From an uncultured bacterium (GTDB lineage: Bacteria > UBP4 > UBA4092), in NCBI GenBank assembly GCA_964644695.1, contig CAZXWN010000001.1:306869-370868 (forward strand): DNA of 64,000 nucleotides, written 5' to 3'. Position numbers and translations under genes: made by a program. Of the stretch, positions 8,216-57,017 are shown piece after piece. How positions within the stretch are numbered: the first letter of the stretch is position 1; every line of letters begins with the position of its first letter. Under the pieces are notes generated by a model that was given only the letters and a program-made list of their open reading frames with translations, made no database searches and had not been told where the DNA came from.

Positions 8216-8243
8216 AATCGAACAAAATCGATCTCGTTCGATT
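8216..8243. repeat. Dispersed palindrome, copy 1 (28 bp, 2 mismatches)
   Basis: AATCGAACAAAATC|GATCTCGTTCGATT in the divergent SPOR gene / kdsA intergenic region. Confidence 0.8.
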
Positions 8244-8397
8244 CATCTTCGTTTGGTCTATTCTTCTAAAAAATTATATACCTAATAGAACTATTATTTA
8301 TATATTTACTTGATAATTATCTGATTATGATTAGATAGACGAATAAGTTAAAATCAGATGATGTAACTTGTATCAATATTTATAGAAGGATTTTAGA

Positions 8398-9228
8398 ATG
8401 ATTAAGTGTGGAGAAAATATACAGGTTGGTGAGGGTAATCCTCTTTTAGTTATCGCTGGGCCCTGTGTCATTGAAAATGAAGACATAGTAATGTCAATAG
8501 CTGAAAAAGCTTTAAATATTACCCAGAAGATAGGGTTGCCCTATATTTTTAAGGCTTCCTTCGATAAAGCTAATCGTAGTTCTGTTGATAGTTTCAGGGG
8601 CCCCGGTATATCAAAGGGCTTGGAGATACTGAACAAAGTCAAGAATACCTTTAAAATCCCAGTTCTTACGGATATCCATGAATGCAGTCAGATTAAACCT
8701 GTCGCTGAAGTTGTAGATATTATCCAAATACCGGCTTTTTTGTGTCGACAAACTGATTTATTAGTTGAGTCAGCCAAAACAGGCTTAGTTGTAAATGTAA
8801 AAAAAGGGCAGTTTATTTCCCCTTATGATATGAAGAATGTTGTCGATAAGTTGGAATCTACTGGAAATAAGAAAATAATGCTGACCGAACGGGGAACATT
8901 TTTTGGTTATAACAATCTGGTTGTTGATTTTCGGGGATTACCTGTTATGAGAAATTTTGGATATCCCGTAATATTTGATGCAACCCATAGTGTGCAAAGA
9001 CCTGGTGGCGCTGGATCATCTTCGACAGGTGACCGCGAGTTTATTGCGCATTTATCAAGAGCGGCTATGGCTGTTGGATGTGATGGCGTGTTTTTGGAGA
9101 CCCATCCAAATCCAGAAAAAGCTCTTTCAGATGGCCCTAATATGGTTGCTTTGGCTGATTTGGAAAGACTTTTGACCCAATTAAAAAGTGTTCACGAATT
9201 AGTTGAAACCAATGGATTTAATAAATAA
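8398..9228 (+). CDS. kdsA: KDO8P synthase (2-dehydro-3-deoxyphosphooctonate aldolase)
   Basis: IAGPCVIE, KASFDKANRSS, QIPAFLCRQTDL, VKKGQF, DATHSVQRPG motifs. Confidence 0.97.
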   Translation: MIKCGENIQVGEGNPLLVIAGPCVIENEDIVMSIAEKALNITQKIGLPYIFKASFDKANRSSVDSFRGPGISKGLEILNKVKNTFKIPVLTDIHECSQIKPVAEVVDIIQIPAFLCRQTDLLVESAKTGLVVNVKKGQFISPYDMKNVVDKLESTGNKKIMLTERGTFFGYNNLVVDFRGLPVMRNFGYPVIFDATHSVQRPGGAGSSSTGDREFIAHLSRAAMAVGCDGVFLETHPNPEKALSDGPNMVALADLERLLTQLKSVHELVETNGFNK

Positions 9229-9262
9229 TTTTTAAAAACTGTCTTAGGATTTTATAACGGAT

Positions 9263-11593
9263 TTATTTATTTTTATTTTTTTCTTTTAAGCAAAGGTAAA
9301 CCAACAGTGTAATACTGCTAAAAAGTCCTGATACAGATAGTAATAATCCCAAAACAAGAGTCGATGGCCAGTAGATTAAGTCCAGATGGTTATTTCCAGC
9401 GGGGACTGAAAAAGTCATAAAAGGATGATTTATCTGTTCAACTGAAATCTTTTTTCCATTGAGTTTGGCTTTCCATCCATTGGCATAATTCTCAGAGATA
9501 TAAACCATTCCTTTGTAGGGCATCTTAATGTCAATACTTATATGGTTCGGATTCAAATAATGGGTGTGAGCCATAATTGATTTCTGCTGAATTTCTTTTA
9601 GTGATGCTTGAGATAAAAACAAGTTATCTGGGTATCCAAAGGAACGAGGCAATGTCTCAGGATTAAAATATTCCAAGACTCCATTTTTTTTCGTGTTTAA
9701 TTTCAGATACTTTGTATTCAATGGCACGGATGAATATATTCTACTAACATTCATCAAGCTGATTGTTTTTACAGGTTCATCTTCATTTACAGCAGGATCC
9801 ATCCAGACTCGTGGGCCTGAATCCTTCCAAAATCCAACCTGTGCTTGCCGGAGATGATTTTCATATTCATTGAGAACGACCGCATCATATCCCCTGATGT
9901 CGGCATCCCCGGTTAAAGTTGCAACATTGGGTGGATATGCAGTCCATTCATCTAGTGATAATAATCTTCCCGAGGATAGCGTATTAACATAGTCCGTTTT
10001 ACATTTAACCTCTAAAGGGTAGGGTAATTTAATAACTGGATTATACCCATATCCAAAGTGAAATAAATTGGTAATAGTAAGTGCTAAAATTCCGAACCCC
10101 ATAATATTTCTTAACTTGAAGTTGGGTTTTGCAGATAACAGGAAAAGTGACAATAAAAAACATATAGAAGGTAAAATCCAGAATACAGTGGTCTGATATA
10201 TTTGAGTTCCCAGGTAGGGGAGGACCGTTTGAATATTATTGTCAATTAGTGGACTTAAAAAGTATTGAAGGAATTGGGGGCTGAATTTGAAAGGAATAAA
10301 GGAAAGAGGTAATAAGAAACAAATCAACAAAGCTGGGGCAGGGATTTTTACTATATTTTTCTTTAAGAAACAACTTAATGTTTCACTAGACAAAATTATC
10401 AATGCTAAAGAGATGATAATGACCATTCTTTTGGGGTGGATTAATGAGATGCCGGGAAGGTGCGCGAGAATCTTTCCTATTATTGGAATGTCATAGGCCA
10501 GAATAAAACTTAGAACGAGTGTGATTATCCAGAACCAATAATAACTTGATCGTGACAACACAAATATTCCAATTATCCCCAATAGTAAGGGGAGAATTCC
10601 AACATACCCACTGACGGCCTCATTGTAATTAAACTGGTAAAAGATATCGGGTTTGATCCACTCATTCATTAATGTGGGATTGCCAAAAAAGTCGGGGAAT
10701 ATCCATGTAACCAGGGAACGAATTGCCTGGCTGTCATTTGCTAATCCCAGGGATCTTTCTTTGAGTGCTGTGGAATTTTTCATGTATTCTAGAAAAGGTA
10801 TCCATTGAATACAGGAAATGAGAAATATAGATAATCCTGCAATTAAAAGAATCCGAGATACATGGTTAAACCGTAAACCATCTTGATACAAACAATACGC
10901 ACCAATGACTAAGAGAGACATGAAAATTGTTTCAGGATGACCACCTAACAAGATACATAACAAACAAAACATCCATCCTGCCAGAATGTATGGAGAAATC
11001 TTGCAATGCAATTTGTCGGTGAAATAAAGAATCAGTGGTATCCAGATAAATGAATTTGTATGTGGGTGCCCCAACCACAATACTTGAAATCCAAATAACA
11101 TGAAAGTAATCCCACCAAACAATGCTGCCAAGAAGTGTAATTTGCGTTCATGCAGGTATAAAAACATTCCCCATCCAGATACTAATAATTTACTGAAAGC
11201 AACGAGAAATAATCCCCATTGTAAGGGTAAAAACCAGGACATTAGATTAGATGGATATAAAAGAGCCGATTGGCTGTTGGCAAGGAATGGCGCTCCACAA
11301 TATTGAGCAGAATTCCATAAAGGCAATGTTCCCTTTTGTATCCAGTGTGAGGTGAAAACTCGCCACGGTATAAACTGTAATGCCTGATCTGATAATAAAT
11401 AATTTTGGGGAGTTGCTGTCAATTGGTTTGTTTGGTAGGGATACCAATGAAATAAAAGATCTACAGGTCCAAGGCAAGTATTCTTAAATAAAGAAGATGG
11501 ATTTAAGAATATCCCTGCAGTGATAAAAATTAACAGCAACCCCCAGAACAAATGATTGTTTACCTTAGCAAGTTTTTTTAGTAATGTTTTCAT
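9263..11593 (-). CDS. YfhO-like polytopic membrane protein (GT-C-fold glycosyltransferase candidate)
   Basis: PLWNSAQYCGAPFLANSQSALLYP motif, many TM helices, C-terminal SENYANGWKAKLNG...VPAGNNHLDLIYWP. Confidence 0.8.
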   Translation of the reverse strand: MKTLLKKLAKVNNHLFWGLLLIFITAGIFLNPSSLFKNTCLGPVDLLFHWYPYQTNQLTATPQNYLLSDQALQFIPWRVFTSHWIQKGTLPLWNSAQYCGAPFLANSQSALLYPSNLMSWFLPLQWGLFLVAFSKLLVSGWGMFLYLHERKLHFLAALFGGITFMLFGFQVLWLGHPHTNSFIWIPLILYFTDKLHCKISPYILAGWMFCLLCILLGGHPETIFMSLLVIGAYCLYQDGLRFNHVSRILLIAGLSIFLISCIQWIPFLEYMKNSTALKERSLGLANDSQAIRSLVTWIFPDFFGNPTLMNEWIKPDIFYQFNYNEAVSGYVGILPLLLGIIGIFVLSRSSYYWFWIITLVLSFILAYDIPIIGKILAHLPGISLIHPKRMVIIISLALIILSSETLSCFLKKNIVKIPAPALLICFLLPLSFIPFKFSPQFLQYFLSPLIDNNIQTVLPYLGTQIYQTTVFWILPSICFLLSLFLLSAKPNFKLRNIMGFGILALTITNLFHFGYGYNPVIKLPYPLEVKCKTDYVNTLSSGRLLSLDEWTAYPPNVATLTGDADIRGYDAVVLNEYENHLRQAQVGFWKDSGPRVWMDPAVNEDEPVKTISLMNVSRIYSSVPLNTKYLKLNTKKNGVLEYFNPETLPRSFGYPDNLFLSQASLKEIQQKSIMAHTHYLNPNHISIDIKMPYKGMVYISENYANGWKAKLNGKKISVEQINHPFMTFSVPAGNNHLDLIYWPSTLVLGLLLSVSGLFSSITLLVYLCLKEKNKNK

Positions 11594-11660
11594 ATGGATT
11601 AACCTAATGGATTGTATAATAAATTAATATTAAATAGTTTGGAAATGAAAGGGGTTTACT

Positions 11661-12698
11661 ATGATTCGGGTTGGTATTATTGGTTCCGCTAGTTTTACCG
11701 GAGGAGAACTGCTCCGATTATTAAGCAGACATCCTGAAGTCAAAGTGACCTGTCTAGAATCTTCTAGTAATGCAGGTAAAAAAGTTTTTCAAGTTCATCG
11801 TCAGTTATTAGGATTATATGATTTGACTCTACAAACATATAATCGTGATCAAATTAAAAGTGAATGTGATGTGGTATTTATTTGTCGTTCATCAGGCGGG
11901 TCGATGAAATTTATTCATGATCTATATGATGAAAATGATAATTTAAAGATAATTGACCTTGGCGGTGATTTTAGACTCCAAGATGTAAGTCTTTATCCAA
12001 AATGGTACAAATTTGACCATATTTGCCCCGATTTGGTTAAAAAGGCTGTTTTTGGTTTATCGGAAATTCATACAGATGCTATAAAAAAAGCAAAATTGTT
12101 ATCGAATCCAGGATGTTATGCGACTTCGATATTATTAGCATTAATTCCACTTATAGCCGAAAAATATGTGGTTTTAGACTCAATTAAGGTCACTTCTTAC
12201 TCAGGAATGTCAGGTGCCGGGAAAACACATAAAGAAGGTTTTAACTTGTTTATGGATGCTTATGGCAATGCTCGCCCCTACAGAGTAGGGACGCATCAAC
12301 ACACACCTGAAATTGAAGGACAGTTAAAGATTTTTAGTGATAATGACATTAAGATTACGTTTGTACCCCATGTTATGCCCATTGATCGAGGAATATTAAC
12401 TGAAATATGGTGTTCTCCACAAAGCCCCTATCAATTTGAAAGTTTGATGGAGGTTTATTTAAAATACTATCAAAATAGGCCCTTTATTCGTCTACGGCAA
12501 CAGGGTGATTATCCTCAAGTGGCAGATGTGAATTATACAAACTTCTGCGATATCAGTTGGGACTATGACGCAAGAACTAATTCACTCATTATTTTTTCGG
12601 CGGAAGATAATGCTATTAAAGGAGCTAGTGGGCAAGCAATTCAAAATATGAACCTCATGTTTGGATTCCCGGAAACCACAGGATTACCAGGTTTTTGA
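11661..12698 (+). CDS. argC: N-acetyl-gamma-glutamyl-phosphate reductase
   Basis: GELLRLLSRHP, IIDLGGDFRL, NPGCYATS, SGMSGAG, HQHTPEI, DNAIKGASGQAIQNMN. Confidence 0.95.
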   Translation: MIRVGIIGSASFTGGELLRLLSRHPEVKVTCLESSSNAGKKVFQVHRQLLGLYDLTLQTYNRDQIKSECDVVFICRSSGGSMKFIHDLYDENDNLKIIDLGGDFRLQDVSLYPKWYKFDHICPDLVKKAVFGLSEIHTDAIKKAKLLSNPGCYATSILLALIPLIAEKYVVLDSIKVTSYSGMSGAGKTHKEGFNLFMDAYGNARPYRVGTHQHTPEIEGQLKIFSDNDIKITFVPHVMPIDRGILTEIWCSPQSPYQFESLMEVYLKYYQNRPFIRLRQQGDYPQVADVNYTNFCDISWDYDARTNSLIIFSAEDNAIKGASGQAIQNMNLMFGFPETTGLPGF

Positions 12699-12719
12699 GC
12701 CTGATTTCGATTACTTTAA

Positions 12720-13823
12720 ATGACAATTAATTGGGTAGTCATTTGTATAATACTCCTTACGATGACAGGTGTGATTTCCTGGCTTATTACTCCTGTGTGT
12801 CGTCTTTTAGCTCTTAAATTGGGAATATTAGACCATCCTGGTCAGAGGAAAATTCACTTTTCTCCTAAACCATATTTAGGAGGTTTGGCCATCTATTTAG
12901 CAATGTATGTCGTAACTATTGCTGGTTTGGTTTTTGCTCTATCATTTCCTCATGTGATTCAGAACTACTTTCCTTCACAGATTGCTATTTACATTCCCAA
13001 TATTGATTCGGTTATGAGTAAATTATCTGTGTTATTTGTGACTGGGACATTCATGTTTATATTGGGATTGCTTGATGATAAGTATGTTTTAAAACCCAGC
13101 ATAAAATTCCTTTGCCAAATTGGGATTATTTCTGTAGCGGCTATCTTGGGAATACGATTAGACTTGTTTTTAAATTCCCCAATATTATCAATTTTTGTGA
13201 CAGTATTATGGATTACGGCAATTACAAATGCTTTAAACTTTATGGACAATATGGATGGATTGTCGGCTGGAGTAACAACAATAGCGTCATTGATATTTTT
13301 GATTCACTCTCTTCAGTTAGGACATGTATATATGGCTGTTATCCTTGCCGTTTTTTCTGGCGCTGTTCTTGGATTCTTGCCACATAATTACCCTGTCTCG
13401 AAAATATTTATGGGTGATGCTGGAGCTCTTTTCATTGGATATAACTTGGGATCACTTACGGTTATGAATTCTTACTATTACGTTGGGAATCCTAATTGGT
13501 TGCCTCTATTGCTTCCTTTATTTGTTCTCAGTATGCCTTTATTTGATTTAATTAGTGTGATGATTATTCGAATTAGAAATCATAAACCTGTTTATATCGG
13601 GGATAAGAACCATTTCTCTCACAGGCTTATGGCTTTGGGCCTATCTCAGAAACAGGCTCTATGGACTATATATTTAGTCACATTTATTACAGGATGTGGT
13701 GCTTTATTACTAAAAGATTTAAGTTTCCTACAAGGGATATTGGTTTTGGTCCAGATGATAGCTATTTTTTCAGTTGTGACTGTTTTAGAAAAGGCTGGAC
13801 GTAATATTACATCATCTAACTAA
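12720..13823 (+). CDS. MraY-family polyprenyl-phosphate N-acetylhexosamine-1-phosphate transferase (WecA/TagO-like)
   Basis: DHPGQRKIH..PKPYLGGLA, LGLLDD, NALNFMDNMDGL, IFMGDAGA, DKNHFSHRL. Confidence 0.9.
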   Translation: MTINWVVICIILLTMTGVISWLITPVCRLLALKLGILDHPGQRKIHFSPKPYLGGLAIYLAMYVVTIAGLVFALSFPHVIQNYFPSQIAIYIPNIDSVMSKLSVLFVTGTFMFILGLLDDKYVLKPSIKFLCQIGIISVAAILGIRLDLFLNSPILSIFVTVLWITAITNALNFMDNMDGLSAGVTTIASLIFLIHSLQLGHVYMAVILAVFSGAVLGFLPHNYPVSKIFMGDAGALFIGYNLGSLTVMNSYYYVGNPNWLPLLLPLFVLSMPLFDLISVMIIRIRNHKPVYIGDKNHFSHRLMALGLSQKQALWTIYLVTFITGCGALLLKDLSFLQGILVLVQMIAIFSVVTVLEKAGRNITSSN

Positions 13824-13861
13824 CTGGTAATAAAATAGATATAAATAAAATAAAATAGGCT

Positions 13862-13890
13862 TTGACAAACTATATCTAGGGTGTTAAACT
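13862..13890 (+). promoter_or_regulatory. Sigma70-type promoter with no downstream + strand gene
   Basis: TTGACA (13862-13867), 17-bp spacer, TGn-extended TAAACT (13885-13890). Confidence 0.6.
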
Positions 13891-13994
13891 GTTTTTTCTA
13901 GGAAAAATAGGGTGATATCAAATAGTTTTGATAGCCATTGAAAACAAAAAAATTAAACCAGCCAAAGCGAATCATCTTCTTTAGGCTATCAAAT

Positions 13995-14025
13995 AAACCA
14001 CATCCATTAGGATGTGGTTTTTCTT
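13995..14025. terminator. Probable bidirectional intrinsic terminator
   Basis: AAACCACATCC-ATTA-GGATGTGGTTT followed by TTCTT; lies between the convergent WecA-like and GT4 genes. Confidence 0.75.
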
Positions 14026-14051
14026 ATAAGTATTATGTAACTTCAATAAAA

Positions 14052-15179
14052 TCATTCTAGTACACTATCGTAAACTTCTTTCACTTTTTCAAACATTAAT
14101 GTGGTAGAAAACTCCTTTTCTAAACGTACTTTAGCGTATTTCCCCATATCTAGCATTTCTTGAGGGTGATTTATGCAGTATTCAAAGGCTTTTGCTAAGT
14201 CTACTGGATCTTTTGGCTTAACTATGAGCCCCGTTTTCATATGTTGATTAACAAATGGGACCCCTGTGTTAAGGTCTGTACTAATGACTGGTTTACCACA
14301 AGCATGTGCTTCCAATTGAACCAAGCCATATGCTTCACTACGTTCTATTGAGGGCAAGCAAAACACGTCACATGCATACAAATATGGTAATAAATCATGG
14401 TCACTAAGTTCACCAAGAAAATGGATCTGTGAATCTAAATTTAAACTCTTTACTAAATTTAAGTATTCTGCTTCCTGTTTTACTTTTGGAGCTTTCCCAA
14501 TTATCCAAAAATGAATGCCTTTGGTTAATTTAGCTGCATTTATTAAAACACCTAATCCTTTGTAGTATCTTAGTTTTCCAATAAAAAGGACATGTAGTTG
14601 ACCTGGATACTTAGTCTTTAATTCATGTGCTTTATTTAAGGTATCGTTATTGGCCTTAAATTGGTCAGAATTTATTGTTAAGGGTACTACAGTACATTTA
14701 GTTTTGTAGTGTTGCAATATTGGTGAAGAAGCAAGATAGTTCTCTGAAGTAGGTAATATTCGGCTTGCATGATTAAAAAATAAATGGAGAAATGGTTTAT
14801 ATAATGGCATGATCAGGGCTTGCCTAATTATGTCGCTGTGATAAGAGATGACCAGCTTCCCCGGTGATCCTGCTAATAAATAAGCAATTTCAGCTGTAGG
14901 ATTTGGATGATGGAAATGGTAAATATCAGCCTTAATTTTTCGAATATAATGATGTAATGAGGGGGTTATTGGAGCAGACATAAATCTGCCCAATTGTGCA
15001 ACTTTTGTTATTTTTATAGTGTCTTCGAAAGATATTTCAGTCTTGTTTTTGCGATTTGCAATCAAGACTTCAACATCTAAGCCATTTTCCTGGGATAAAT
15101 GACATAACAAGTGAATATGTTTTTCTACTCCACCTGTTATGGGGGGATACATATCTTTATATACATGTAGAATTTTCAT
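14052..15179 (-). CDS. Glycosyltransferase, GT4 family (GT-B)
   Basis: MKILHVYKDMYPPITGGVE start; GKLRYYKG; SEAYGLVQLEAHACGKPVIST. Confidence 0.92.
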   Translation of the reverse strand: MKILHVYKDMYPPITGGVEKHIHLLCHLSQENGLDVEVLIANRKNKTEISFEDTIKITKVAQLGRFMSAPITPSLHHYIRKIKADIYHFHHPNPTAEIAYLLAGSPGKLVISYHSDIIRQALIMPLYKPFLHLFFNHASRILPTSENYLASSPILQHYKTKCTVVPLTINSDQFKANNDTLNKAHELKTKYPGQLHVLFIGKLRYYKGLGVLINAAKLTKGIHFWIIGKAPKVKQEAEYLNLVKSLNLDSQIHFLGELSDHDLLPYLYACDVFCLPSIERSEAYGLVQLEAHACGKPVISTDLNTGVPFVNQHMKTGLIVKPKDPVDLAKAFEYCINHPQEMLDMGKYAKVRLEKEFSTTLMFEKVKEVYDSVLE

Positions 15180-16114: not shown

Positions 16115-16116
16115 AA

Positions 16117-16404: not shown

Positions 16405-16460
16405 TAGATAATCGTAATAAAACCAAAGTAGATTGTCGAGTCTATATGATAGGGAGAAAT

Positions 16461-23254: not shown

Positions 23255-23288
23255 ATACATCGAACAAGATTGATCTTGTTCGATGTAT
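23255..23288. repeat. Dispersed palindrome, copy 2 (34 bp, 1 central mismatch)
   Basis: ATACATCGAACAAGATT|GATCTTGTTCGATGTAT in the divergent gpsA / 23440 intergenic region. Confidence 0.88.
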
Positions 23289-42399: not shown

Positions 42400-43767
42400 T
42401 TATTGTCTGTATAGCACATATTTTATAACTTGACCAAGATTTTTAGGGATTTTAAATACAGTATTTTTTATAACATCTATCCAACCTATTGATTCTGAAT
42501 GACTTATCATTCCTAACGCAAATTGAAGCATTAAATTGATATTCCATACCGATAACATCGATAAAACGAATAATCCAATTCTTATTCGTATACATGATAA
42601 AAAACCCGCTAAACCCAGACAATATATGGGATACAAGTCTAACAATCTCCGATATCCAAATGAGGATCCAGCCCACCAATTGTCAGGTACGGCGTTAATG
42701 TAGATTTGAAAAAGGATAAAAACATCGAACAAGATCGATCTTGTTCGATGTTCCTTCGTTTGTAATCCGAGACCGATAAATACTAAAAAATACACGGGAT
42801 TCCATGTTAAAAAACCATGCCGTGATGAAAAAAGAACATCCCATATTCTGGGGCTGGCCCAGTTCATTGTTTCATTTCCCATCGGAATGAGAAACCAAAA
42901 CCCATAAACAATTTTCCATACAATCAATTGTGGAAGGAATCCTATAAATAACCCTAAAGACAATGCTGTTGAATTGGAAAGATAGTGTTTACTCCTATTT
43001 TTTAACCAAAACCATATATAGGGAATTAATACAATAGGTAAGTTCTGCCAACGAACAAGACCCACCAATCCCGCCAAAAGGCCTATAAGGAGATATTCGA
43101 GAGATCCTTTATCTTTTAATTTCCACCATACCCAAAGAAATAATGAGATAGAAAAACAGGATAAAACATGCGCCATACTCGGAACGAGCGATTGGTAATA
43201 TATGAAAGGCGTGGTAAATAAGAGCCCGATTATTGACAGTAACGAAATGGTGCATGAATACCAGTTCCTGACAAATTTATATGACAAAATCAGGGTCATC
43301 AATCCATAAATTGCAGTTCCAAAACTGATACTTCCCACATAGAAAAGAGAATATCCATTCATCAGGTTTGTATCGGTGAACAAATAGTACAAATAGGTTA
43401 GAAGGTGACCAATTAAAAAGAAAGGTAACCATAACAGGGCTGGTCCACAGGATGTTCTGTTGGGTGTGTGATTAGTAATTGTTCGTGGTTCATCTGGAGA
43501 AAACAATCCACTTTTATCATGGGCAGGTTTGTAAGAAGTAATCTTCGGAGCGGAGCTGTCTCCGGTGAAAATTTTGTAATAGTAATCAAATTCATTAGAA
43601 TATTGTAAATCCCCATCTATGACTATTGAACGAAGTTGGGCATAGTAAGCTATTCCATCGCTGTTTATCCATGGGTGTAATAATGGGAGCAGTAAAACCC
43701 AGAAGACAACAATGATCCAAAGAGAGCGTTGATCTGTTAATGTAATTTTTTTATTCATGGTACACAC
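42400..43767 (-). CDS. Polytopic membrane glycosyltransferase candidate (GT-C / PMT-like)
   Basis: SDGIAYYAQLRSIVIDGDL, GPALLWLPF, LFSSRHGFLTWNP, WWAGSSFGYRR; many TMs; true start may be at MNKK. Confidence 0.78.
   Translation of the reverse strand: MCTMNKKITLTDQRSLWIIVVFWVLLLPLLHPWINSDGIAYYAQLRSIVIDGDLQYSNEFDYYYKIFTGDSSAPKITSYKPAHDKSGLFSPDEPRTITNHTPNRTSCGPALLWLPFFLIGHLLTYLYYLFTDTNLMNGYSLFYVGSISFGTAIYGLMTLILSYKFVRNWYSCTISLLSIIGLLFTTPFIYYQSLVPSMAHVLSCFSISLFLWVWWKLKDKGSLEYLLIGLLAGLVGLVRWQNLPIVLIPYIWFWLKNRSKHYLSNSTALSLGLFIGFLPQLIVWKIVYGFWFLIPMGNETMNWASPRIWDVLFSSRHGFLTWNPVYFLVFIGLGLQTKEHRTRSILFDVFILFQIYINAVPDNWWAGSSFGYRRLLDLYPIYCLGLAGFLSCIRIRIGLFVLSMLSVWNINLMLQFALGMISHSESIGWIDVIKNTVFKIPKNLGQVIKYVLYRQ
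42721..42752. repeat. Dispersed palindrome, copy 3 (perfect 32 bp, intragenic)
   Basis: AACATCGAACAAGATC|GATCTTGTTCGATGTT; read on the minus strand as (E)HRTRSILFDV. Confidence 0.9.
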
Positions 43768-44269: not shown

Positions 44270-45340
44270 ATGAAAATAGATTCTCTTGAGTTGCTGGATT
44301 TCAGAAATTATTCTTCCATCAAAATCCCAATAAATGATTCTCATGTTTTAATCCGAGGTGATAATGCTCAGGGAAAAACTAATTTAATTGAGGCCATTTA
44401 TATTGGTGCATTGGGAAAATCCTTTAGAACGTCTATTACTCGTGAAACAATCCGATTTGGCCAGGAACAGGCTTTTGTTTCCATTCACTTTACTCGAAAC
44501 CGGGTTCGTCATAAGATTCGCTATCGAATTGCCTCTCAGGGGAATTCATTTTCGGTCAATGATACTCCTGTTACGAAACGATCTGAACTGGTTGGCAAGT
44601 TGCCCGTTGTTCTTTTTACTCCTGATTATTTATCCTTGATAAAAGGAGAACCTCAGGGACGACGGGCATTTATTGACAGCTGTTTATGCCAGATTGATGT
44701 TGAGTATTTAAAACATCTCCAGCGTTACCATCATGTTGTTAAACAAAGAAATCAGGCTCTCAAGGATGTTCGTGCTAATCGGTCCCCTTTTGATTGCGTA
44801 GAGGCCTGGAATAGCCAATTAGTAGAAACGGGACTCTTCATAACACAGAAGAGAGTCGATAGTTTGGCTATAATCAATCAGTTATTGGAAACGTTTAACA
44901 AGATAAATAGAACTCATATCAATCTTGAATATGAGCCCTCTATGAAAAAACTAAATATTAATGAGATTTATCAGGACCTCAACGACAATCGTGAATCGGA
45001 AATATTCAAGGGTTCAACCAGTATGGGGCCTCATCGGGATAATATATCTTTTTATGATGGAGAAAAATTATTAAAAAATTATGGCTCACAGGGAGAACAA
45101 AGGACAGCTATTCTCTTGTTAATGGTGGCACAAGTTAATTTTCTCTATCGTTTTTCGGGAGAATATCCAGTAATATTATGGGATGACTTTGCATCAGAAC
45201 TGGATGTTAAGCATATGACGATGATGTTGGATTTAATTCCCAATACGTGTCAATTGATAGCTACGTCAGTCGATGTCCCATCCGCAGGTCATAAATCGTT
45301 TAATAACATAATGAGAATACAAAACGGAAAATTAGTTTAA
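44270..45340 (+). CDS. recF: DNA replication/repair protein RecF
   Basis: LDFRNY, GDNAQGKTNLIEAI, KSFR, GPHRD, GSQGEQR, ILWDDFASELD. Confidence 0.94.
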   Translation: MKIDSLELLDFRNYSSIKIPINDSHVLIRGDNAQGKTNLIEAIYIGALGKSFRTSITRETIRFGQEQAFVSIHFTRNRVRHKIRYRIASQGNSFSVNDTPVTKRSELVGKLPVVLFTPDYLSLIKGEPQGRRAFIDSCLCQIDVEYLKHLQRYHHVVKQRNQALKDVRANRSPFDCVEAWNSQLVETGLFITQKRVDSLAIINQLLETFNKINRTHINLEYEPSMKKLNINEIYQDLNDNRESEIFKGSTSMGPHRDNISFYDGEKLLKNYGSQGEQRTAILLLMVAQVNFLYRFSGEYPVILWDDFASELDVKHMTMMLDLIPNTCQLIATSVDVPSAGHKSFNNIMRIQNGKLV

Positions 45341-49032: not shown

Positions 49033-51126
49033 TTATTCCTCAATTACTAGACAACTAAAGTCTGCAATTTTATTGAATGAGTTTTCCATCATTTCCAGTA
49101 ATGCTAAACGATTGTTGCGGATAGTATCATCTTTATCCATAACCATTACTTTCTCAAAGAATAAATCAATCGGCGTTCGTAACTTTGCTATTTCTTGTAA
49201 AGCCATCATATAGTTTTTTTCAGAACAGAACCTGTTAATTTCCCCTGTAATAACATTAATTGTTTTAAACAAATTGATTTCCGAAGAATCAATAAAATAT
49301 GATTCATTGGGTTGTCCAAAAGTTTGTGCATTATATTTTTCACGTGCTTGCTTCAAAATATTCATAGTTCGTTTGAATGCAACTGTTAAAGGATTGAAAT
49401 CATCTGAATGTCTAATTGAGTGTAGAGCATCGCAACGAAGCAATGCATCACTGACATTTTTGAAATCTACTGATAAGGTGGCATCAATCGTATCATATGA
49501 ATACTCTTTTTCCGCCATGAATGCTTTTAATCTATTAAGGAAAAAATCAAATACCGCATCATGTCCGGATGAAGCATCAATACCATCTGATACATATAAT
49601 TCAATAGCTTTATCAATGATTTTCTCTAATGAAAGATTCCATTCAGGGTGATTTGCAATAATTCGAATAATACCATTTGCTGATCTTCTTAATGCAAAAG
49701 GATCTTCCGATCCAGTGGGTATCATTCCAATACCAAAACATCCAATGATGGAATCCAATTTATCAGCTATTGATACAATAGAACCAATGAGATTGGATGG
49801 AAGTGGTGATTCAGGACCTTTCGGCAAGTAGTGTTCTTCAATCGCTAAGGCTACTTCTGAATCTTCACCATCGAAGTTTGCATAATGTTTGCCCATTACA
49901 CCTTGTAGCTCAGTGAATTCTTTAACCATTTCAGTGATTAAATCAATTTTTGATAAATGAGCCGCCTTTTGTACATGACCAGTTTCAATAGAGGTTAATC
50001 CAACAAGTTCACCAACAAATTGACTAAGCTGTTCGATTCTCTTGGTTTTTTTGTCATAATTGCCTAGCTTTGCCTGGAATAAAAGACCAGATAGTTTGGG
50101 GAATTTATCTTCCAGCTTATTTTTGGTATCTTCTTTCCAAAAGAAATGTGCATCCGATAGTCTTGCTTCCAAAACCCTTTCATTTCCTTCTTTAATGAAT
50201 CTCTCAGCATTCTTATCAGAATTATGAATTGATATAAAACCAGAGTCTAAGTTTCCATTGTCATTTATTAATGGAAAATACTTTTGATGATGTTTCATTG
50301 ATGTAATTAAAACATCTTGGGGAAGCTTTAAATACTCCGGAGAAAAAGAACCCTGGATAATTGCCGGACATTCAACAAGATTGGTAACTATATCTAAAAG
50401 ATTCTCATCATAATTCCTGGTTTCAGATTTATTAAGCAATTGCCGGATTGAGTCTTTACGTTTGTTATGGTCTGCAATAACAAAGGCCTTTTCCAAAACA
50501 GACAAATATTCCAGTAGGTTTGCGGTTTGCAAAACTATTTGTTCATTTGCCCGGATTTTATGTCCATATGTAATATTAGAAGAGTCCACACCAGCTTTTG
50601 AATAAGTGATTACCTGATCGCCAAATAGTGCCACAATCCAACGGAGAGGCCGAGCATATCTATATTGGGTTGCTTCCCAATACATAGACTTGGGAAAATT
50701 GATTTTAGTTAGTATTTCTTCACATAGATCAGGTAAAAGATCATATGTATTTAATCCCCCGACCATCTTTTTTACAGCAAGATATTCTCCTTTATCTGTC
50801 TGAATCTTAAAGGTATCTTCAATAGCGCAATCTTGATTCCGAGTGAAACCAGTGCCTGCCTTAGACAAAGTTCCATCAGGATTGAATGCTACTTTTGCTG
50901 GGGGACCAATAATTACCTTTTCAGATAAAGCCTGTTTATCCGAAACACTAGATACATGCAGAGTTAATCGACGTGGAGTCGAAAACCCTTTTATATCTTT
51001 AGCTTCCAGTTCATTATTTACGAACCACTTGGAGGCAATATCAACTATTTGTTCTCTTGCAGATGCAATATAGCCGGCAGGAATTTCTTCAGAGCCTAAT
51101 TCGAGTAAAAAATCATGGCTAGACAC
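49033..51126 (-). CDS. glyS: Glycine--tRNA ligase beta subunit
   Basis: FLLELGSEEIP, TPRRL, GNERVLEARLSDA, EFTELQG.MG, TGSEDPFALRR, NRLALL; GTG start with GGAG RBS. Confidence 0.95.
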   Translation of the reverse strand: MSSHDFLLELGSEEIPAGYIASAREQIVDIASKWFVNNELEAKDIKGFSTPRRLTLHVSSVSDKQALSEKVIIGPPAKVAFNPDGTLSKAGTGFTRNQDCAIEDTFKIQTDKGEYLAVKKMVGGLNTYDLLPDLCEEILTKINFPKSMYWEATQYRYARPLRWIVALFGDQVITYSKAGVDSSNITYGHKIRANEQIVLQTANLLEYLSVLEKAFVIADHNKRKDSIRQLLNKSETRNYDENLLDIVTNLVECPAIIQGSFSPEYLKLPQDVLITSMKHHQKYFPLINDNGNLDSGFISIHNSDKNAERFIKEGNERVLEARLSDAHFFWKEDTKNKLEDKFPKLSGLLFQAKLGNYDKKTKRIEQLSQFVGELVGLTSIETGHVQKAAHLSKIDLITEMVKEFTELQGVMGKHYANFDGEDSEVALAIEEHYLPKGPESPLPSNLIGSIVSIADKLDSIIGCFGIGMIPTGSEDPFALRRSANGIIRIIANHPEWNLSLEKIIDKAIELYVSDGIDASSGHDAVFDFFLNRLKAFMAEKEYSYDTIDATLSVDFKNVSDALLRCDALHSIRHSDDFNPLTVAFKRTMNILKQAREKYNAQTFGQPNESYFIDSSEINLFKTINVITGEINRFCSEKNYMMALQEIAKLRTPIDLFFEKVMVMDKDDTIRNNRLALLEMMENSFNKIADFSCLVIEE

Positions 51127-51137
51127 GGGTTTAACTC

Positions 51138-52103
51138 CTATAAATTTTCGTCATAATAAATAACTTGGTATTTTTGTTTTAGATCATTTATCCAATTGTT
51201 GTAAAAAAGTTTTCCTTTTTCAGAAGCTAATTTATCCAGTACATCAACCTTTACTTGATCAAAACTTTTGATTTGACCAAGATGTTTGCTTTCAAGCTTT
51301 AATATGAATAATCCCTGATTAGTTGTAATGATGTTGGAATAGGAACCTTCATTCAAGGTAAAAGCAGTGTCTTCTATCTCGGGAAGTGACTTTAACTGCC
51401 CCCGCAGAACAGGCGGACCAATTTCAATACCGTACTCGCTTTCACTAAACATTTTTGCTATTGATTCAAAATCATTTGTCTTCAAAAGATCATAAGCATC
51501 TTTAGCTTTTTTGTATTTTGCACTTTTTATTTCAGACGTAGTATTGGGGTCGTATTGAATATAAATATAACGAAAGCGTACAGAATCCCCAGTAGAATAG
51601 TCTTTCAGATGATTATTATAATAGCTTTGGGCTTCTTCGAGAGATATGGCAGTAACCTTCGAGTACACATATATATGAAGTAGTTGTAGGACTTGCCATT
51701 GCTCACTCAGCTTTTGTCGATATTCTTTTTCACTTATATTTAGTTCTTTAAGTAATCTTTGAAATTTTTCTTCTCCACCATAAAGTTCTTTTTCTTTTGA
51801 TAACTGAAGTTCAATTTGGTTGGCTTTGGGAACAATCCTTTTTTGAGCGGTTTCATTCATGATCAGTCTGTTTTCAACAATAGTATCTAATACACGCCGC
51901 TTAGCTTCACGGGATGAGAGGCCGACTGTTACTACAGACAATGAAGGCTTCATCATTTCAAGAGATAAATCAGATTGTGTAATAGTAAGATTCCCAACCT
52001 TCGCTAAAATGGTGGAATTATTCTGAGCAGATACTTGGATTGATAAAGATATTGCCAACAAAAAAACAGCTATGAAAATAAACACAGTATGTTTTTTGTA
52101 CAT
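51138..52103 (-). CDS. SurA/PrsA-like parvulin PPIase chaperone
   Basis: Signal peptide, ILAKVGNLTIT, FESIAKMFSE, AFTLNEGSYSNIITTNQGLFILK. Confidence 0.85.
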   Translation of the reverse strand: MYKKHTVFIFIAVFLLAISLSIQVSAQNNSTILAKVGNLTITQSDLSLEMMKPSLSVVTVGLSSREAKRRVLDTIVENRLIMNETAQKRIVPKANQIELQLSKEKELYGGEEKFQRLLKELNISEKEYRQKLSEQWQVLQLLHIYVYSKVTAISLEEAQSYYNNHLKDYSTGDSVRFRYIYIQYDPNTTSEIKSAKYKKAKDAYDLLKTNDFESIAKMFSESEYGIEIGPPVLRGQLKSLPEIEDTAFTLNEGSYSNIITTNQGLFILKLESKHLGQIKSFDQVKVDVLDKLASEKGKLFYNNWINDLKQKYQVIYYDENL

Positions 52104-52109
52104 TCGTAA

Positions 52110-53504
52110 TTACTCCGTTTGAATAAAATCATGAGGATCAATATTGTAACTCTGCAGTTTATCTTTGAAGTTATTTCTGTCCATGTCTGCCATCTGTGCT
52201 GCCTGGGATATATTTCCATGCGTAGTGCTTAATAAATCACTAAAATACTGTTTTTCAAAGCTTTCCAATAATAACTTTTTTGCATCACGGTAAGGAATAT
52301 TGTAAAAATGATCCTTATCAGAACTGGAATTATTATTACCCGGCATGGTGTAGTTGAAATCATTCAATCCCAACTCATTATTCAAACATAATACCACAGC
52401 ACGCTCTATAAGATTTTCCAGTTCACGAACATTTCCTGGATAATCATATTGTTGCAGAAATGTTATGGCATCGGGTTTGATTCTATTAATTGCTTTACCG
52501 CACTCTTGAGAATACTTGTTTATGAAGTGTTGTATTAAATCAGGGATATCTTCAGGGCGTTCTCTCAAAGGAGGAATATTAATCGGAACAACATTCAACC
52601 GAAAATAGAGGTCTGATCGAAATGTTCCTTCTTTAACCAGTTTTTTTAGCGGTCGATTTGTCGCTGCAATAATACGGACATCGGCTTTTTTAACATGAGT
52701 ACCCCCAACGGGTTCAAATTCCTTTTCCTGTAAAACCCGAAGTATTTTACCCTGCAAAGATAAACTCATATCCCCAATCTCATCAAGGAAAAGAGTTCCA
52801 CCTTCAGCTAATTCAAATTTTCCCGGTTTAGTATAAGTGGCATCAGTAAAAGCACCTTTGACATGTCCAAATAATTCGCTTTCAAGAAGTGTGTCAGGAA
52901 TTGCCACACAATTGACTTTTATCATTGGTTTATCACGACGAGGACTGTTGTCATGAATGGCTCTGGCAACTAATTCCTTACCTGTACCGCTTTCACCCGT
53001 GATGAGAACTGTACTAAATGTTGGTGCTACTCTTCTAATCAATTCAAAAACACTTTTTATTGCTGGACTGTGTCCAATAAAATTCTTAAATGGATGTGTT
53101 TGATCTATTTCATCTCGAAGATATGCAATTTGTCTTTGCAGCCGGTTCATTTCCAGTGCTTTTTTTACTAATAAGACAACCTCATCATTTTCATATGGTT
53201 TCTTTAAGTAATTAAAAGCACCTTCTCTCATGGCTTCAATGACATCGTCCACCGTCGCATGTGCTGTAATCATCATCACAGGAAGAAGTGGATTCATTTT
53301 TTTTATGTGATGCAGCAAGTCCAAGCCTGTCATCTTAGGCATTCGGACATCGGATATGACCAAATCAAAATCTTCCTGCTGGAGTAGGTCCAGAGCTTCC
53401 TGTCCGTTAGATGCTGTCAGAATTTGATAGCCTTCAAACTCTAAGAGCATTTTTATCGAGCCGCGGACATGTTCTTCATCATCAACGATAAGGATCTTCG
53501 CCAT
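52110..53504 (-). CDS. Sigma54-dependent response regulator (NtrC/AtoC family)
   Basis: Receiver (ILIVDDE, SDVRMP), GESGTGKE, ESELFGHVKGAFTDA, FLDEIGD, PGNVRELEN, C-terminal HTH. Confidence 0.94.
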   Translation of the reverse strand: MAKILIVDDEEHVRGSIKMLLEFEGYQILTASNGQEALDLLQQEDFDLVISDVRMPKMTGLDLLHHIKKMNPLLPVMMITAHATVDDVIEAMREGAFNYLKKPYENDEVVLLVKKALEMNRLQRQIAYLRDEIDQTHPFKNFIGHSPAIKSVFELIRRVAPTFSTVLITGESGTGKELVARAIHDNSPRRDKPMIKVNCVAIPDTLLESELFGHVKGAFTDATYTKPGKFELAEGGTLFLDEIGDMSLSLQGKILRVLQEKEFEPVGGTHVKKADVRIIAATNRPLKKLVKEGTFRSDLYFRLNVVPINIPPLRERPEDIPDLIQHFINKYSQECGKAINRIKPDAITFLQQYDYPGNVRELENLIERAVVLCLNNELGLNDFNYTMPGNNNSSSDKDHFYNIPYRDAKKLLLESFEKQYFSDLLSTTHGNISQAAQMADMDRNNFKDKLQSYNIDPHDFIQTE

Positions 53505-55234
53505 TATGAAATACTCCTGAATTTATCTACTAAAGGGAGGTAAAGAGTAAAAGTTGTCCCTTCACCAGGTACACTGTCAACCTTAATTCTTCCATGGTGA
53601 TTTTCAATGATCTGATTGGCTACGGATAATCCAAGCCCCGTTCCTTCATCTCTGGTTGTAAAAAACGGGTCAAATATTTTTTTAAGAACATCTTCAGATA
53701 TTCCGGGCCCCTGATCTTTTACAGCAATTCCAATCATATGGTTGTTTACATTATCAGCAAAACTGATTTTCAATGTGCCACCTTCACTCATTGCCTGGCA
53801 TCCATTTAACACCAGGTTTAAGAGTACTTGTTGCAGTTGATTCGGATCTGCAGCAATCATCCCCTTAGGATTTGAGTCAGGAACTTCAAAATGGTAATTT
53901 TCTGAAGAAAACTGTGTTTGTGCCAATTGAATAGTCCTATGAATTACATCAAGAGGATCTACTTCTTTAATCTGAGGTTCTCTCGGTCGTGCGAAATCAA
54001 GAAATTCCTGGATAAAATCATTAAGACGATTTACTTCATCAATAATGATTTTAATGATGGATAATTCCTTTTCACCCTTCAAAAAACGATCTCTCAGAAT
54101 GGCTGCATAACTTTTGATTGACCCCAAGGGGTTTCTGATTTCATGCGCAACACCTGCTGAGAGTTTTCCTAAAGAAGCCAGTTTTTCTTGACGATTCAAT
54201 TGCTGTTCAAGTTCTCGCATTTCTTTGAGCTTAAAAGCCATTTGATTGTATGAATGGGCCAGGTTTTGTATTTCATCGCCAGATTTTATTTTTATCTGAT
54301 AGTCAAGATTTCCTTTAGATACTTCATCCACGCCTTTGGACAATTCCTGAACTGGCTTAGATATTGAGCGAGCAATAATAAGTCCTAAAATGATAGCTAC
54401 AATTGCGCTGACACCCACCATGAGACCATAAAATGAATATTTGTATTTACTCCACACTTCCCCCACAGTAGAGCGGGGTATCCCTAAAAAGATAGCGCCA
54501 ATGACATTATCTTTTTTGTCTTTAAGTGGTTTCACTATAACTTGAAAGGGGACATTACTGACCAGTAATCTTTCTGTACGGAAAGTTGTCTTCTGATCAA
54601 GAACTACAGTATTCATTCTTTGACTGGCTGGGTCTTTAGGATTTACCTTAAAGGGAGGTTCAAGCAGAGATGCCTGAACATTAGGTATAAAGCCTGGGAT
54701 AGCATCAACCATACCGTCTTTTACCCAAGCACCTACTTTAACTCCACCAAGAATTTTACCCTGTTGTCTAATGACACCAATTGATGAAACCATGACTCCA
54801 ACGGTTTGGGTTTGAGTCGTTGTAATTGTATATCCTTGCCAAACAGGATTTGCTTTTTCAATTAATACCTTTTTGTCAGGCACATAATCTTTAAGTTGTT
54901 GCGGTGATAATAATTCAATATCATTCACACGCTTATCAGTTTTTTTGAGAGTTTCTCCATACTCCTGCATTCGCTTAATTAATGCAGCGCTGTTCCATTG
55001 GGCGACATTCTTGATAATGATTTTATCTTCAGCCAGGATGGTTGATGGAATAGCCGTTCTTGATGTTAATGAAGAATATTGTTTATCAACAAGATTTATT
55101 GCATTATCTAGCTGGTTGTGAGCTTCAAGATTCAACCATTTTTCATTCAAATTTATAGTCAAATATACCGAAGCCAACATTGGAAGCGTTCCAACCACAA
55201 GAAAGGCCAATATCAATTTTGTTTGAATTTTCAT
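53504..55234 (-). CDS. Sensor histidine kinase (periplasmic sensor, HAMP, HisKA, HATPase)
   Basis: Two TMs, HAMP, AHEIRNPL, QQVLLNL..N, DQGPGI, FFTT..GTGLGL; start placed at MKIQTK. Confidence 0.92.
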   Translation of the reverse strand: MKIQTKLILAFLVVGTLPMLASVYLTINLNEKWLNLEAHNQLDNAINLVDKQYSSLTSRTAIPSTILAEDKIIIKNVAQWNSAALIKRMQEYGETLKKTDKRVNDIELLSPQQLKDYVPDKKVLIEKANPVWQGYTITTTQTQTVGVMVSSIGVIRQQGKILGGVKVGAWVKDGMVDAIPGFIPNVQASLLEPPFKVNPKDPASQRMNTVVLDQKTTFRTERLLVSNVPFQVIVKPLKDKKDNVIGAIFLGIPRSTVGEVWSKYKYSFYGLMVGVSAIVAIILGLIIARSISKPVQELSKGVDEVSKGNLDYQIKIKSGDEIQNLAHSYNQMAFKLKEMRELEQQLNRQEKLASLGKLSAGVAHEIRNPLGSIKSYAAILRDRFLKGEKELSIIKIIIDEVNRLNDFIQEFLDFARPREPQIKEVDPLDVIHRTIQLAQTQFSSENYHFEVPDSNPKGMIAADPNQLQQVLLNLVLNGCQAMSEGGTLKISFADNVNNHMIGIAVKDQGPGISEDVLKKIFDPFFTTRDEGTGLGLSVANQIIENHHGRIKVDSVPGEGTTFTLYLPLVDKFRSIS

Positions 55235-55245
55235 AATTAGTCTTG

Positions 55246-56127
55246 TTAGACTCCCCAATTTAACTTAGTCTGGAGAATTTGAAAATAAGTCCTATTGGTA
55301 GATATTAGTTTAATACTCTGTGAGGATTTCTGTACGATGACACGATCGTGTGGCTGAAGATGTAAACCTTCTTGTCCATCCAGTGTTAAATAAGTTTCAT
55401 TCTGAGGAGTGGCTATCTCAATTTCAACAACATCAGAGCCATTAATAATCAATGGCCGGTTACTTAAGGTGTGGGGGCATAATGGGGAAATGATGAGTGC
55501 GTCCATTGTGGGATAGACAATAGGACCCCCTGCAGATAATGAATGTCCAGTGGATCCTGTTGGCGTGGAAATAATGAGTCCGTCGGCACGATATTCATTA
55601 ACTAACTGTTGATTGATGTGGATCCGAAGTTTAATGATACGAGAAAGAGTATCCCTGGAAATGACTACATCATTTAATGCCTGTTGCTTCCAAACTGTGT
55701 GTAAATCATCATTATCTGAAGCTTTTCTCAGAATCGAAGCCTCCATCATAATGCGATTATCACATTCATATTCGTTGGCCAGGATGCTCTCCAGCTTATG
55801 ATAGAGTTCTCCCACAGAAGTGTTTACTAAAAAGCCCAAAGTGCCAAAATTAACTCCCAAAACAGGACAAGAGCCATAGGCTTTTTTTCTGGCACCCCAT
55901 AACAATGTGCCATCACCACCCAGAACAATAATCAAATCGGAGTCCTGATGTAACTTTTCAATTTCTGTTAATTGATAAGGCTGGGGGACAAATCCCTTTA
56001 ACTCATCCGTGACAATAACCTGACATTGTTTATCTGTAAGCCATTGACAAAGCCGCTGAATTTCCAAAAGAGCATTTGGCTTTTTCAGATTAGCGATAAT
56101 ACCGATGCGTTTGGCAGAGTTACTCAT
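55246..56127 (-). CDS. nadK: NAD kinase
   Basis: LGGDGTLL, GVNFGTLGFL, ALNDVV, DGLIISTPTGSTGHSLSAGGP. Confidence 0.96.
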   Translation of the reverse strand: MSNSAKRIGIIANLKKPNALLEIQRLCQWLTDKQCQVIVTDELKGFVPQPYQLTEIEKLHQDSDLIIVLGGDGTLLWGARKKAYGSCPVLGVNFGTLGFLVNTSVGELYHKLESILANEYECDNRIMMEASILRKASDNDDLHTVWKQQALNDVVISRDTLSRIIKLRIHINQQLVNEYRADGLIISTPTGSTGHSLSAGGPIVYPTMDALIISPLCPHTLSNRPLIINGSDVVEIEIATPQNETYLTLDGQEGLHLQPHDRVIVQKSSQSIKLISTNRTYFQILQTKLNWGV

Positions 56128-56155
56128 TTAACAAGCATCCTTTTGGATAAAAACA

Positions 56156-56908
56156 TTAAGGTTTTTGAGCCCAAACTAAAAATTCGATATTCCCAGCCGG
56201 TCCATGGATCGGGGATTCCATGTTCCCATGGACAATAAAACCCGTCTTATTCAAAAAATCCAGAATATCATCTAAAACAGCTTGCCTTACATCAGGGTCA
56301 CGAACAACCCCAGAACCTTTACTGATTTCTTTTCGTCCCGCTTCAAATTGGGGCTTTACTAATGTTATTAATGTACCACCAGATTTTAAAATTGAGTATA
56401 TATTGGGAAGGATCAGTTTAATAGAAATAAATGATACATCCATAACAACCATGTCCAATGGTTCAGGGATGTGTTCATCGGATAAGAACCGGGCGTTGAG
56501 TTTTTCCAGGACAACCACTCGTTCATCTTGTCTTAGATTGATATCCAGTTGACCGTATCCCACATCTACGGAATAGACCCGTTTTGCGCCAGTCTGTAAC
56601 AGACAATCGGTAAAGCCACCCGTGGAAGCGCCAATGTCTCCGCAAATCAAGTCCTTAGGGGAAACTGGAAATCTCTCAAGAGCCGCTTGTAATTTAAGAC
56701 CACCCCGACTGACAAAAGGTAATGTGTTTCCTTTGATTTCGATTACTGCATCTTGAGCAACCGGTTCACCCGATTTATCTATCTTGTTTCCATTGACATA
56801 GACAATCCCAGATAGAATTAACGCTTGGGCTTTTGTTCTGGAATCACAAAGTCCCAATTCGCACATTCTTTTATCGAGTCTATCTTTTCGGTTGGATTGA
56901 GGTTTCAC
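56156..56908 (-). CDS. tlyA: TlyA-family rRNA 2'-O-methyltransferase
   Basis: S4 domain, FVSRGGLKL, DIGASTGGFTDCLLQ, DVSFIS, LVKPQFE, GNIEFL. Confidence 0.94.
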   Translation of the reverse strand: MKPQSNRKDRLDKRMCELGLCDSRTKAQALILSGIVYVNGNKIDKSGEPVAQDAVIEIKGNTLPFVSRGGLKLQAALERFPVSPKDLICGDIGASTGGFTDCLLQTGAKRVYSVDVGYGQLDINLRQDERVVVLEKLNARFLSDEHIPEPLDMVVMDVSFISIKLILPNIYSILKSGGTLITLVKPQFEAGRKEISKGSGVVRDPDVRQAVLDDILDFLNKTGFIVHGNMESPIHGPAGNIEFLVWAQKP

Positions 56909-56977
56909 TGTTGTATCTCATTTTATCACAAGGTATCACGCGTTATTGAAAGACAAATTGATATGAAATTATGGGGA

Positions 56978-57017
56978 AATGGACATCGAACAAGATCGAT
57001 CTCGTTCGATGTCCATT
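56978..57017. repeat. Dispersed palindrome, copy 4 (40 bp, 1 mismatch)
   Basis: AATGGACATCGAACAAGATC|GATCTCGTTCGATGTCCATT in the divergent tlyA / leu leader region, 23 bp upstream of the -35 box. Confidence 0.9.

Follow-up and report, generated by a model that had tools for sequence, protein, structure and literature searches.

What are the four long, regularly phased palindromes found in a 64,000-nucleotide stretch of the genome of an uncultured bacterium of the UBP4 lineage (UBA4092; assembly GCA_964644695.1, contig CAZXWN010000001.1, positions 306,869 to 370,868; henceforth the window), and what do they do there? A preliminary description, made from the letters of the window, had offered two answers: a binding site for a chromosome-organizing or global regulatory protein, or a tiny mobile element. 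We addressed the question across the entire genome under study (G000; 3.07 Mb in 28 contigs denoted C1, C2, C8, C13 and so on, 98.7% complete, with ten short N gaps in which a few sites could be hidden), where the window corresponds to C1:306869-370868, and across four other members of the same class (G001-G004; five genomes in total). The interpretation we prefer, with about as much doubt as confidence, is that the palindromes are protein-bound chromosome-organizing sites with a terminus-specific variant, which would be matS-like in role and unrelated to matS in origin.

Within the window, the 26-bp core of the palindrome lies at 8217-8242 (2 mismatches), 23259-23284 (1), 42724-42749 (0) and 56985-57010 (1), and none of 100 shuffled controls had any match to it. 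The spans initially delineated for copies 1 to 4 are self-complementary at 24/28, 32/34, 32/32 and 38/40 positions. The four copies are thus all present, and the architecture attributed to them is borne out: TCG recurs at 10-bp steps, with an altered center in copy 2, and a further TCG 11 bp beyond is found at 8249, 42756 and 57017 in copies 1, 3 and 4. It is also correct that the three intergenic copies separate divergent genes; copy 3 lies within an open reading frame. These are real DNA, and an assembly artefact is excluded by independent contigs that bridge copy 1 (public runs X4 and X8, from two other studies) and copy 2 (X4, and also X2, which belongs to the same study as the possible source). 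Moreover, of 38 metagenome loci, 30 could be assigned to orthologous sites, 25 different ones in all, at 93-100% identity.

Genome-wide, these palindromes form family A, with the consensus ATCGAACRAGAT-NN-ATCTYGTTCGAT and, 11 bp outside the inner box, a weaker TTCG box. There are 36 copies, of which 33 are on the terminus contig C1 and one each on C2, C8 and C14, for which contig-end overlaps yielded no placement relative to C1. The profile scores drop from 35.6 to 15.4 with nothing between, the maximum in the reversed genome being 14.0, and a tolerant profile run over G000 found no decayed copies. The exact pattern gave one single unrelated match in the GTDB genomes and none in viral contigs, and the A pattern gave two single matches in 396 genomes outside the class. 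A short contig labelled Anaerolinea (L005) bears a lone long palindrome with an A-like core, probably an unrelated repeat similar to repetitive extragenic palindromes (REPs). Although one or two GATC occur in most A sites, this tetramer is under-represented in G000 (rho 0.40). The preliminary description had placed the palindromes preferentially in divergent promoter regions, which fails at the scale of the genome: 11 copies are between divergent genes, 10 between convergent and 13 between tandem ones, and 2 are mid-gene (divergent regions make up 323 of the 1431 intergenic regions at large), and the adjoining genes are unrelated housekeeping genes. With all gene orientations represented and neighbors that have nothing in common, the promoter reading, and with it the global-regulator branch of the first proposal, falls.

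A second palindrome family, B, shares its plan with A, both having CG-containing boxes at 0, about +-11 and about +-22 bp on one helical face. Its core is CGGA-N5-TCNGA-N5-TCCG inside about 51 bp, and G000 has 125 copies (122 by profile and 3 at contig edges), none of them in the window; 121 score at least 40 against a null maximum of 7.6, and the profile scores have no tail of decayed copies. The strict B pattern occurs 54 times in G001, 70 in G004, 5 in G003 and once in G002 (controls 0-1). On C1, family B flanks A on both sides and fills its larger gaps (e.g., at 373 kb and 595 kb), the region from 230 to 590 kb holding 23 A and 1 B and the rest of the contig 10 A and 21 B. When the two families are pooled (A+B, 161 sites), the 139 same-contig gaps have a mean of 16.8 kb, a coefficient of variation (CV) of 0.44 and a minimum of 7.9 kb, whereas 20000 null draws from intergenic regions gave a CV of 0.94 (lowest 0.69) and about 53 expected gaps below 7.9 kb, never fewer than 33. 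A-A gaps have a CV of 0.19, and no A-B gap is below 7.9 kb, which points to one exclusion rule common to both families. This genome-wide test replaces an A-only one on 27 sites (CV 0.27), rejected because its limits had been picked after seeing the data, all 33 sites giving a CV of 0.79. The contigs C13, C19 and C10 (198 kb together) bear no A or B site (P about 3e-5), nor was a third palindrome family found in them; C19 is joined to C13 by a 55-bp overlap and C10 is unplaced. A REP-like family of the same genome, taken as a control (about 20 copies of a hairpin with a 4-base loop), occurs in pairs and clusters on C2, C6, C7, C11 and others, with none on C1. The 161 sites are one lattice, with a spacing of about 15 kb and a hard minimum near 8 kb, A being at the terminus and B on the arms.

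The center of C1 is the replication terminus. The cumulative GC skew has its maximum at C1:380 kb, and the G-rich strand holds most genes on most contigs of G000. The most polarized octamer for a switch at 482 kb, found de novo, is GGGCAGGG (31:1), which we take to be the FtsK-orienting polar sequence (KOPS); its degenerate form is distributed 46:3 before and 2:29 after 480 kb on C1. An 11-6-11 dif-like palindrome, with counterparts in G003 and G002, stands at C1:481,857 directly before the Xer gene. The E. coli and B. subtilis dif sequences gave nothing convincing in G000, and the site was found instead by reading upstream of xer, the product of which has its nearest named relatives in Sumerlaeota (about 46-49% identity). 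The Xer gene and its dif-like site are about 100 kb from the skew maximum. The origin contig, C13, holds parA, parB, two parS-like sites and the DnaA-box clusters. Replication genes are otherwise scattered, with dnaA at C2:369-371 kb, parABS and the DnaA-box clusters at C13:69-72 kb and a recF-like gene at 44270-45340 of the window; a second DnaA-domain protein, also present in all five class genomes, is encoded at C1:707.5 kb. Under the definition in the accessible text of PMC10945525, the A domain extends over 715 kb (23% of the genome) with 33 sites, or 4.6 per 100 kb, and has the dif-like site inside it.

Candidate binding proteins are encoded beside the sites. P0289 is a small basic protein (isoelectric point 10.2), and an A-type palindrome lies 16-243 bp after the stop codon in 8/8 of its close homologues (E<=1.3e-15; one in G000, two in G002, two in G003 and three in G004), a ninth homologue having a diverged palindrome; for comparison, among the 2511 genes of G000 only 31 show an A site no farther than 250 bp from the stop. 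Once seen for P0289, the arrangement was noticed again in G002 and G003, and the class was searched after that. G001 has only distant homologues (E>=6e-5), and A sites are absent from it (21 loose matches vs 20 in the control). Two further paralogues of P0289 are encoded in G000, on C15 and C13. Upstream of the C15 paralogue, a B site stops about 30 bp short of the gene start; G001 shows the same layout (the orthology having been assessed visually), and this B paralogue may regulate itself. No A or B site was seen beside the C13 paralogue (46.2-46.7 kb; L221), which is short, is devoid of the N-terminal domain, resides on the site-free origin contig and is kept in G001; speculatively, it might be a regulator or antagonist. 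More distant paralogues in G002 and G004 (L222, L225, L227, L224) have other long palindromes just 3' of their stops, which suggests further site families.

The linked proteins are 159-181 aa long, and no catalytic family was detected in the P0289 family. The C-terminal 90 residues of P0289 are confidently predicted to form a beta-hairpin and three helices (predicted local distance difference test score 90.8). The best PDB matches of the family profile are HMG boxes (TFAM, E 0.0016), and Pfam searches of 37 family members at E<=0.1 recovered HMG_box in five (best E 0.0023-0.0097) and DUF6266 in two. The C-terminal helices share a W..L...EK..W...A pattern with HMG-box proteins (TFAM, SSRP1, Nhp6A) and DUF6266-like phage proteins; unlike in the HMG box, their order appears permuted, with the helix-1-like motif last, and there are an extra beta-hairpin and an N-terminal helical domain. 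Fold searches with P0289 gave no significant structural match (best Z 4.9), and the permuted order may defeat such searches; ribbon-helix-helix rows (Z 4.1-4.5) were given no weight. The proteins that resemble the family are hypothetical proteins of phages, a likeness that is weak on the recognition value given by the tool itself, and no relatives of P0289 were recovered in viral contigs. On these sequence comparisons, the C-terminal half of P0289 weakly resembles HMG boxes.

Positions of the features discussed (window coordinates unless a contig of G000 is named)
Feature	Position	Strand	Remarks
Family A copy 1 (26-bp core and outer box at right)	8217..8252	.	Intergenic, divergent genes; bridged by independent contigs
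Family A copy 2	23255..23288	.	Intergenic, divergent genes; bridged by independent contigs
Family A copy 3, in frame within membrane-protein gene	42721..42760	.	41 bp identical to copy at C1:268232
455-aa multi-pass membrane protein, coding sequence replaced by copy 3 at unchanged length	42400..43767	-	No NCBIfam name; PMT_2 in some homologues
Family A copy 4	56978..57020	.	Intergenic, upstream of T-box leader 57073-57328
P0289, 159 aa, no family name	C1:394460-394939 (outside window)		A site 16-19 bp after stop
Single Xer-like recombinase with symmetric 11-6-11 dif-like site upstream	C1:481857-482830 (L129)		At octamer polarity switch

Among the neighbors in the window, an Rfam scan at gathering thresholds returned two tRNAs and one T-box and nothing else; the T-box leader is upstream of leu genes in a lineage outside Firmicutes. 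A 1236-aa exported protein at 4328-8038 has several apparent SPOR repeats and tetratricopeptide repeats, as judged by eye.

How the sites are built and how they sit in coding sequence bears on the form in which they act. In both families conservation is periodic, high at the boxes and lower in the stretches that separate them, without outward decay. At positions 3-7, pairing between the B arms falls short of that in shuffled arms (282 vs 340+-9), and at positions 13-18 there is no pairing excess (404 vs 398+-11 shuffled). An apparent conservation of the core between strains (0/550 changes) was set aside because the search pattern had fixed most such positions. The best reading is that the palindromes act as double-stranded sites rather than as hairpins. 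Where they fall mid-gene, alignments indicate that they overwrite coding sequence instead of inserting into it, the protein length being kept. Copy 3 replaces about 14 codons with no gap relative to 24/25 database homologues and 9/9 class homologues, the single exception among the 25 having its own 5-residue insertion there. Likewise, the mid-gene A copy in a GH20 gene on C2 has no gap against 24/24 homologues, and a mid-gene copy in G002, in a variable loop, leaves the protein equal in length to its G001 orthologue and 2 residues longer than that of G000. Copy 3 and the copy at C1:268232 have 11 non-core bases in common, which would favor templated copying over stepwise mutation. Overwrites that look damaging persist in a 96%-identical relative (P0121). 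No relative of the overwritten 455-aa gene was recovered in viral contigs.

With the position, spacing, conservation, overwriting and gene linkage of the sites as observations, the chromosome-organizing interpretation can be spelled out as follows. Each paralogue would bind its own site family as an oligomer along one DNA face; the bound proteins may bend or bridge the DNA, in which case the sites would anchor loops or domains at fixed points about 15 kb apart; and the A paralogue P0289 would mark the terminus in a MatP-like job, for example by excluding SMC (encoded in 5/5 class genomes) or through a link to division. With less assurance, an existing copy might serve as the template from which host DNA is overwritten to give new sites, these being kept only where they fill a lattice gap. 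The part of the preliminary description that compared the palindromes to matS finds good support in their position, spacing and conservation pattern and in a linked candidate protein, the binding itself being a prediction.

Several observations weigh against this interpretation. The number of A-type copies is patchy over the five genomes (0, 8, 29, 36 and about 70). The approximately 70 copies of G002 are spread over many contigs and are missing only from one examined 333-kb stretch; one of them is within about 2 kb of the parB region, and their A-only spacing is no more than mildly even (CV 0.63-0.79, p 0.04-0.21 per contig). The GC skew of G002 is weak, and that genome may consequently be rearranged. 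The neighbors of A-type sites in G003 and G004 map mostly outside the terminus region of G000. Only 3-4 of the 23 G002 sites examined first, and none of the 10 examined later, are at positions of G000 sites; ancient fixed site positions were dropped as an idea, there being too few in common and one apparent match turning out to be two different tRNA-Pro genes. Copies in G002 and G004 are often inside longer shared repeats with other palindromes, as in mobile DNA. In G000 itself the A array is equally centered on its own gene (16 left/17 right) and on the skew maximum (14/19), such that a terminus-specific and a gene-centered array are inseparable there, and it is lopsided about the dif-like site (21/12). 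The eight gene-site pairs are related by descent and thus not independent, and the HMG likeness, at 5/37 members with E<=0.1, is weak. Finally, the A arms covary at positions 14-20 (144 vs 117+-6), as those of a hairpin also would, and change about three times faster than their flanks between strains (17/250 vs 274/12464), which counts against a duplex-only site; template switching at a long palindrome would yield both effects without selection. As a separate observation, a 30-bp AT-rich partner palindrome, often a tandem pair, lies 70-360 bp from many A-type sites in G004 (L065-L082) and G002 (L046-L063) and is absent from G000.

Among characterized systems, matS/MatP comes closest. Like matS, the A sites of G000, though not those of G002, are palindromes over a terminus domain that contains dif. 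The systems covered by the accessible text of PMC10945525 have 6-77 matS sites at about 2-19 per 100 kb, and the A domain of G000 falls in the matS range in size and density, with a similar share of the chromosome. The A sites differ from matS in having 26-46 bp with five phased boxes, in the evenness of A-A gaps (CV 0.19 vs 0.72, p 0.08, for 20 exact E. coli matS sites), in the sister family on the arms and in the company of SMC-ScpAB rather than MukBEF. MatP (PF06303) was detected in none of the five class genomes at E<=0.1, with a positive E. coli control, and the 13-bp matS consensus has no match in G000, the same pattern finding 20 sites in E. coli. The nucleoid-occlusion sites of Noc (NBS) and SlmA (SBS) are dispersed over the chromosome arms and depleted at the terminus. 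Family B resembles them in this; unlike them, it is missing from the origin contig as well, its sites have a minimum spacing and a length of about 51 bp, and the protein linked to it is neither ParB-like nor TetR-like, the only ParB-motif protein found in G000 being ParB itself.

The rival that survives best, possible though doubtful in our estimate, is a selfish gene-plus-site element, in which the small protein would bind the palindrome and host repair or recombination enzymes would copy the site over other DNA. The bound protein would exclude new copies within about 8 kb, an effect for which transposon target immunity is an analogue; the lattice would be a by-product of little host function; and A would have spread outward from its own gene, by chance near the terminus, displacing B. 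Such an element would account for the site seen beside every close P0289 homologue, for the presence in one genome of several pairs of paralogue and site, the sites varying by lineage, and for the patchy copy number. It would also suit the A array, which in G000 is centered on its gene and thins outward, and the genome-wide distribution of A-type sites in G002. The equal-length overwriting and the 41-bp identity of copy 3 to another copy, which suggests templated copying, also fit it, as do, weakly, the phage look-alikes. It is less easily reconciled with the lack of decayed copies in either family, or with B, which flanks A on both replichores and avoids the origin contig, a range that is not simply gene-centered. 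The similarity of A arms shows no isolation by distance along the chromosome (rho -0.016), the protein has no detected catalytic family and the damaging-looking overwrites persist in the 96%-identical relative. The organizer and the selfish element may be stages of one history. The mobile-element branch of the first proposal is retained as a candidate origin or mode of spreading, although no Y1/RAYT gene (RAYT, REP-associated tyrosine transposase) was found in G000.

It is improbable that the palindromes are REP-like hairpins, or their REPIN doublets (REP doublet forming hairpins), that owe their spread to a RAYT-type Y1 transposase and function as stem-loops in RNA or single strands. Long, mostly intergenic palindromes with covarying arms that mutate about three times faster than their flanks would suit such a reading, and G002 and G004 do have Y1 genes, two of which lie near sites, at about 2 kb from an A site in one case and about 1.3 kb from a B-type site in the other. 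However, G000 has no Y1_Tnp matches, and the six in G002 and G004 have no A palindrome in the flanks retrieved, other repeats flanking these genes; no GTAG or CGTC tag is seen in flank logos and alignments; the sites never form dimers or clusters, whereas the true REP-like family of G000 is clustered and off C1; and B arms have no pairing excess, the mid-gene copies replacing rather than inserting. The likeness to the REPtrons described in the accessible part of PMC3733652, in which REPs or bacterial interspersed mosaic elements (BIMEs) accompany a RAYT gene, extends to the dispersal of the palindromes, their variation by lineage and the presence of the cognate repeat beside a gene, and stops at the gene itself, of 159-181 aa and without a catalytic family. 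BIMEs, for their part, have been proposed as supercoil barriers, according to the accessible text of PMC6907758.

Extra Xer sites, unloading SMC in the manner of XDS, or a replication fork trap are very unlikely. The core lends itself to a reading as two arms flanking a 6-bp center, xer is followed at 10-17 bp by an A site in both G000 and G002, and class members have SMC, which XerD/XDS unloads at the Bacillus terminus (accessible text of PMC11894783). The A sites also resemble XDS of Bacillus subtilis in that they may be dedicated to the terminus of an organism that has SMC (PMC11894783 and PMC10945525, in their accessible text). They do not resemble the dif-like site of G000, however; that separate 11-6-11 site before xer has no other match in the genome within 6 mismatches, the A sites number dozens and have a separate linked gene, G001 has Xer without A sites, and family B covers the arms. 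Tus/RTP-type polarity was looked for in the one-sided outer box, the perfect form of which is to the right on the + strand in 13 sites and to the left in 2, and was not found, there being no flip between replichores (9R:0L before and 4R:2L after 380 kb on C1). That the palindromes are operators in divergent promoters, bound by a global transcription regulator, has a negligible likelihood as their main role. Three of the four window copies are indeed divergent, and a B site closely precedes the start of the C15 paralogue. Against this, 10 of the 36 A copies are convergent and 2 are mid-gene, the neighbors are unrelated, no site was found upstream of lexA or recA, as a LexA operator would be, and site position tracks chromosome geography, not gene function.

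The two-family lattice of A and B with its linked proteins thus matches no system that we found, being matS-like in G000 and outside the matS family, and no description of such a lattice or protein was found in the literature, subscription papers and supplements being mostly outside the search. The accessible text of PMC6907758 counts among the open questions what the barriers between bacterial topological domains are, the barriers being usually described as randomly placed, and that of PMC11894783 assigns dedicated terminus systems to few groups, naming MatP/matS and XerD/XDS. In G000 the regular lattice and its terminus variant can be read directly from the genome, as can a candidate protein for each family. 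We tentatively entertain a broader proposal, namely that of a class-wide, self-maintaining, sequence-encoded chromosome scaffold, in which small HMG-like paralogues of phage-related origin would each recognize a long phased palindrome of their own. The sites would be written over host DNA, coding sequence included, with the spacing enforced at about 8-20 kb, and the paralogues would divide the chromosome among them into terminus, arm and site-free origin territories. Should the sites instead be selfish, they would still constitute an undescribed dispersed element, without a recognizable transposase and with an exclusion distance and equal-length overwriting; if the class-wide scaffold is true, they would be the first case of anchors that are both fixed and defined by sequence at topological-domain scale.

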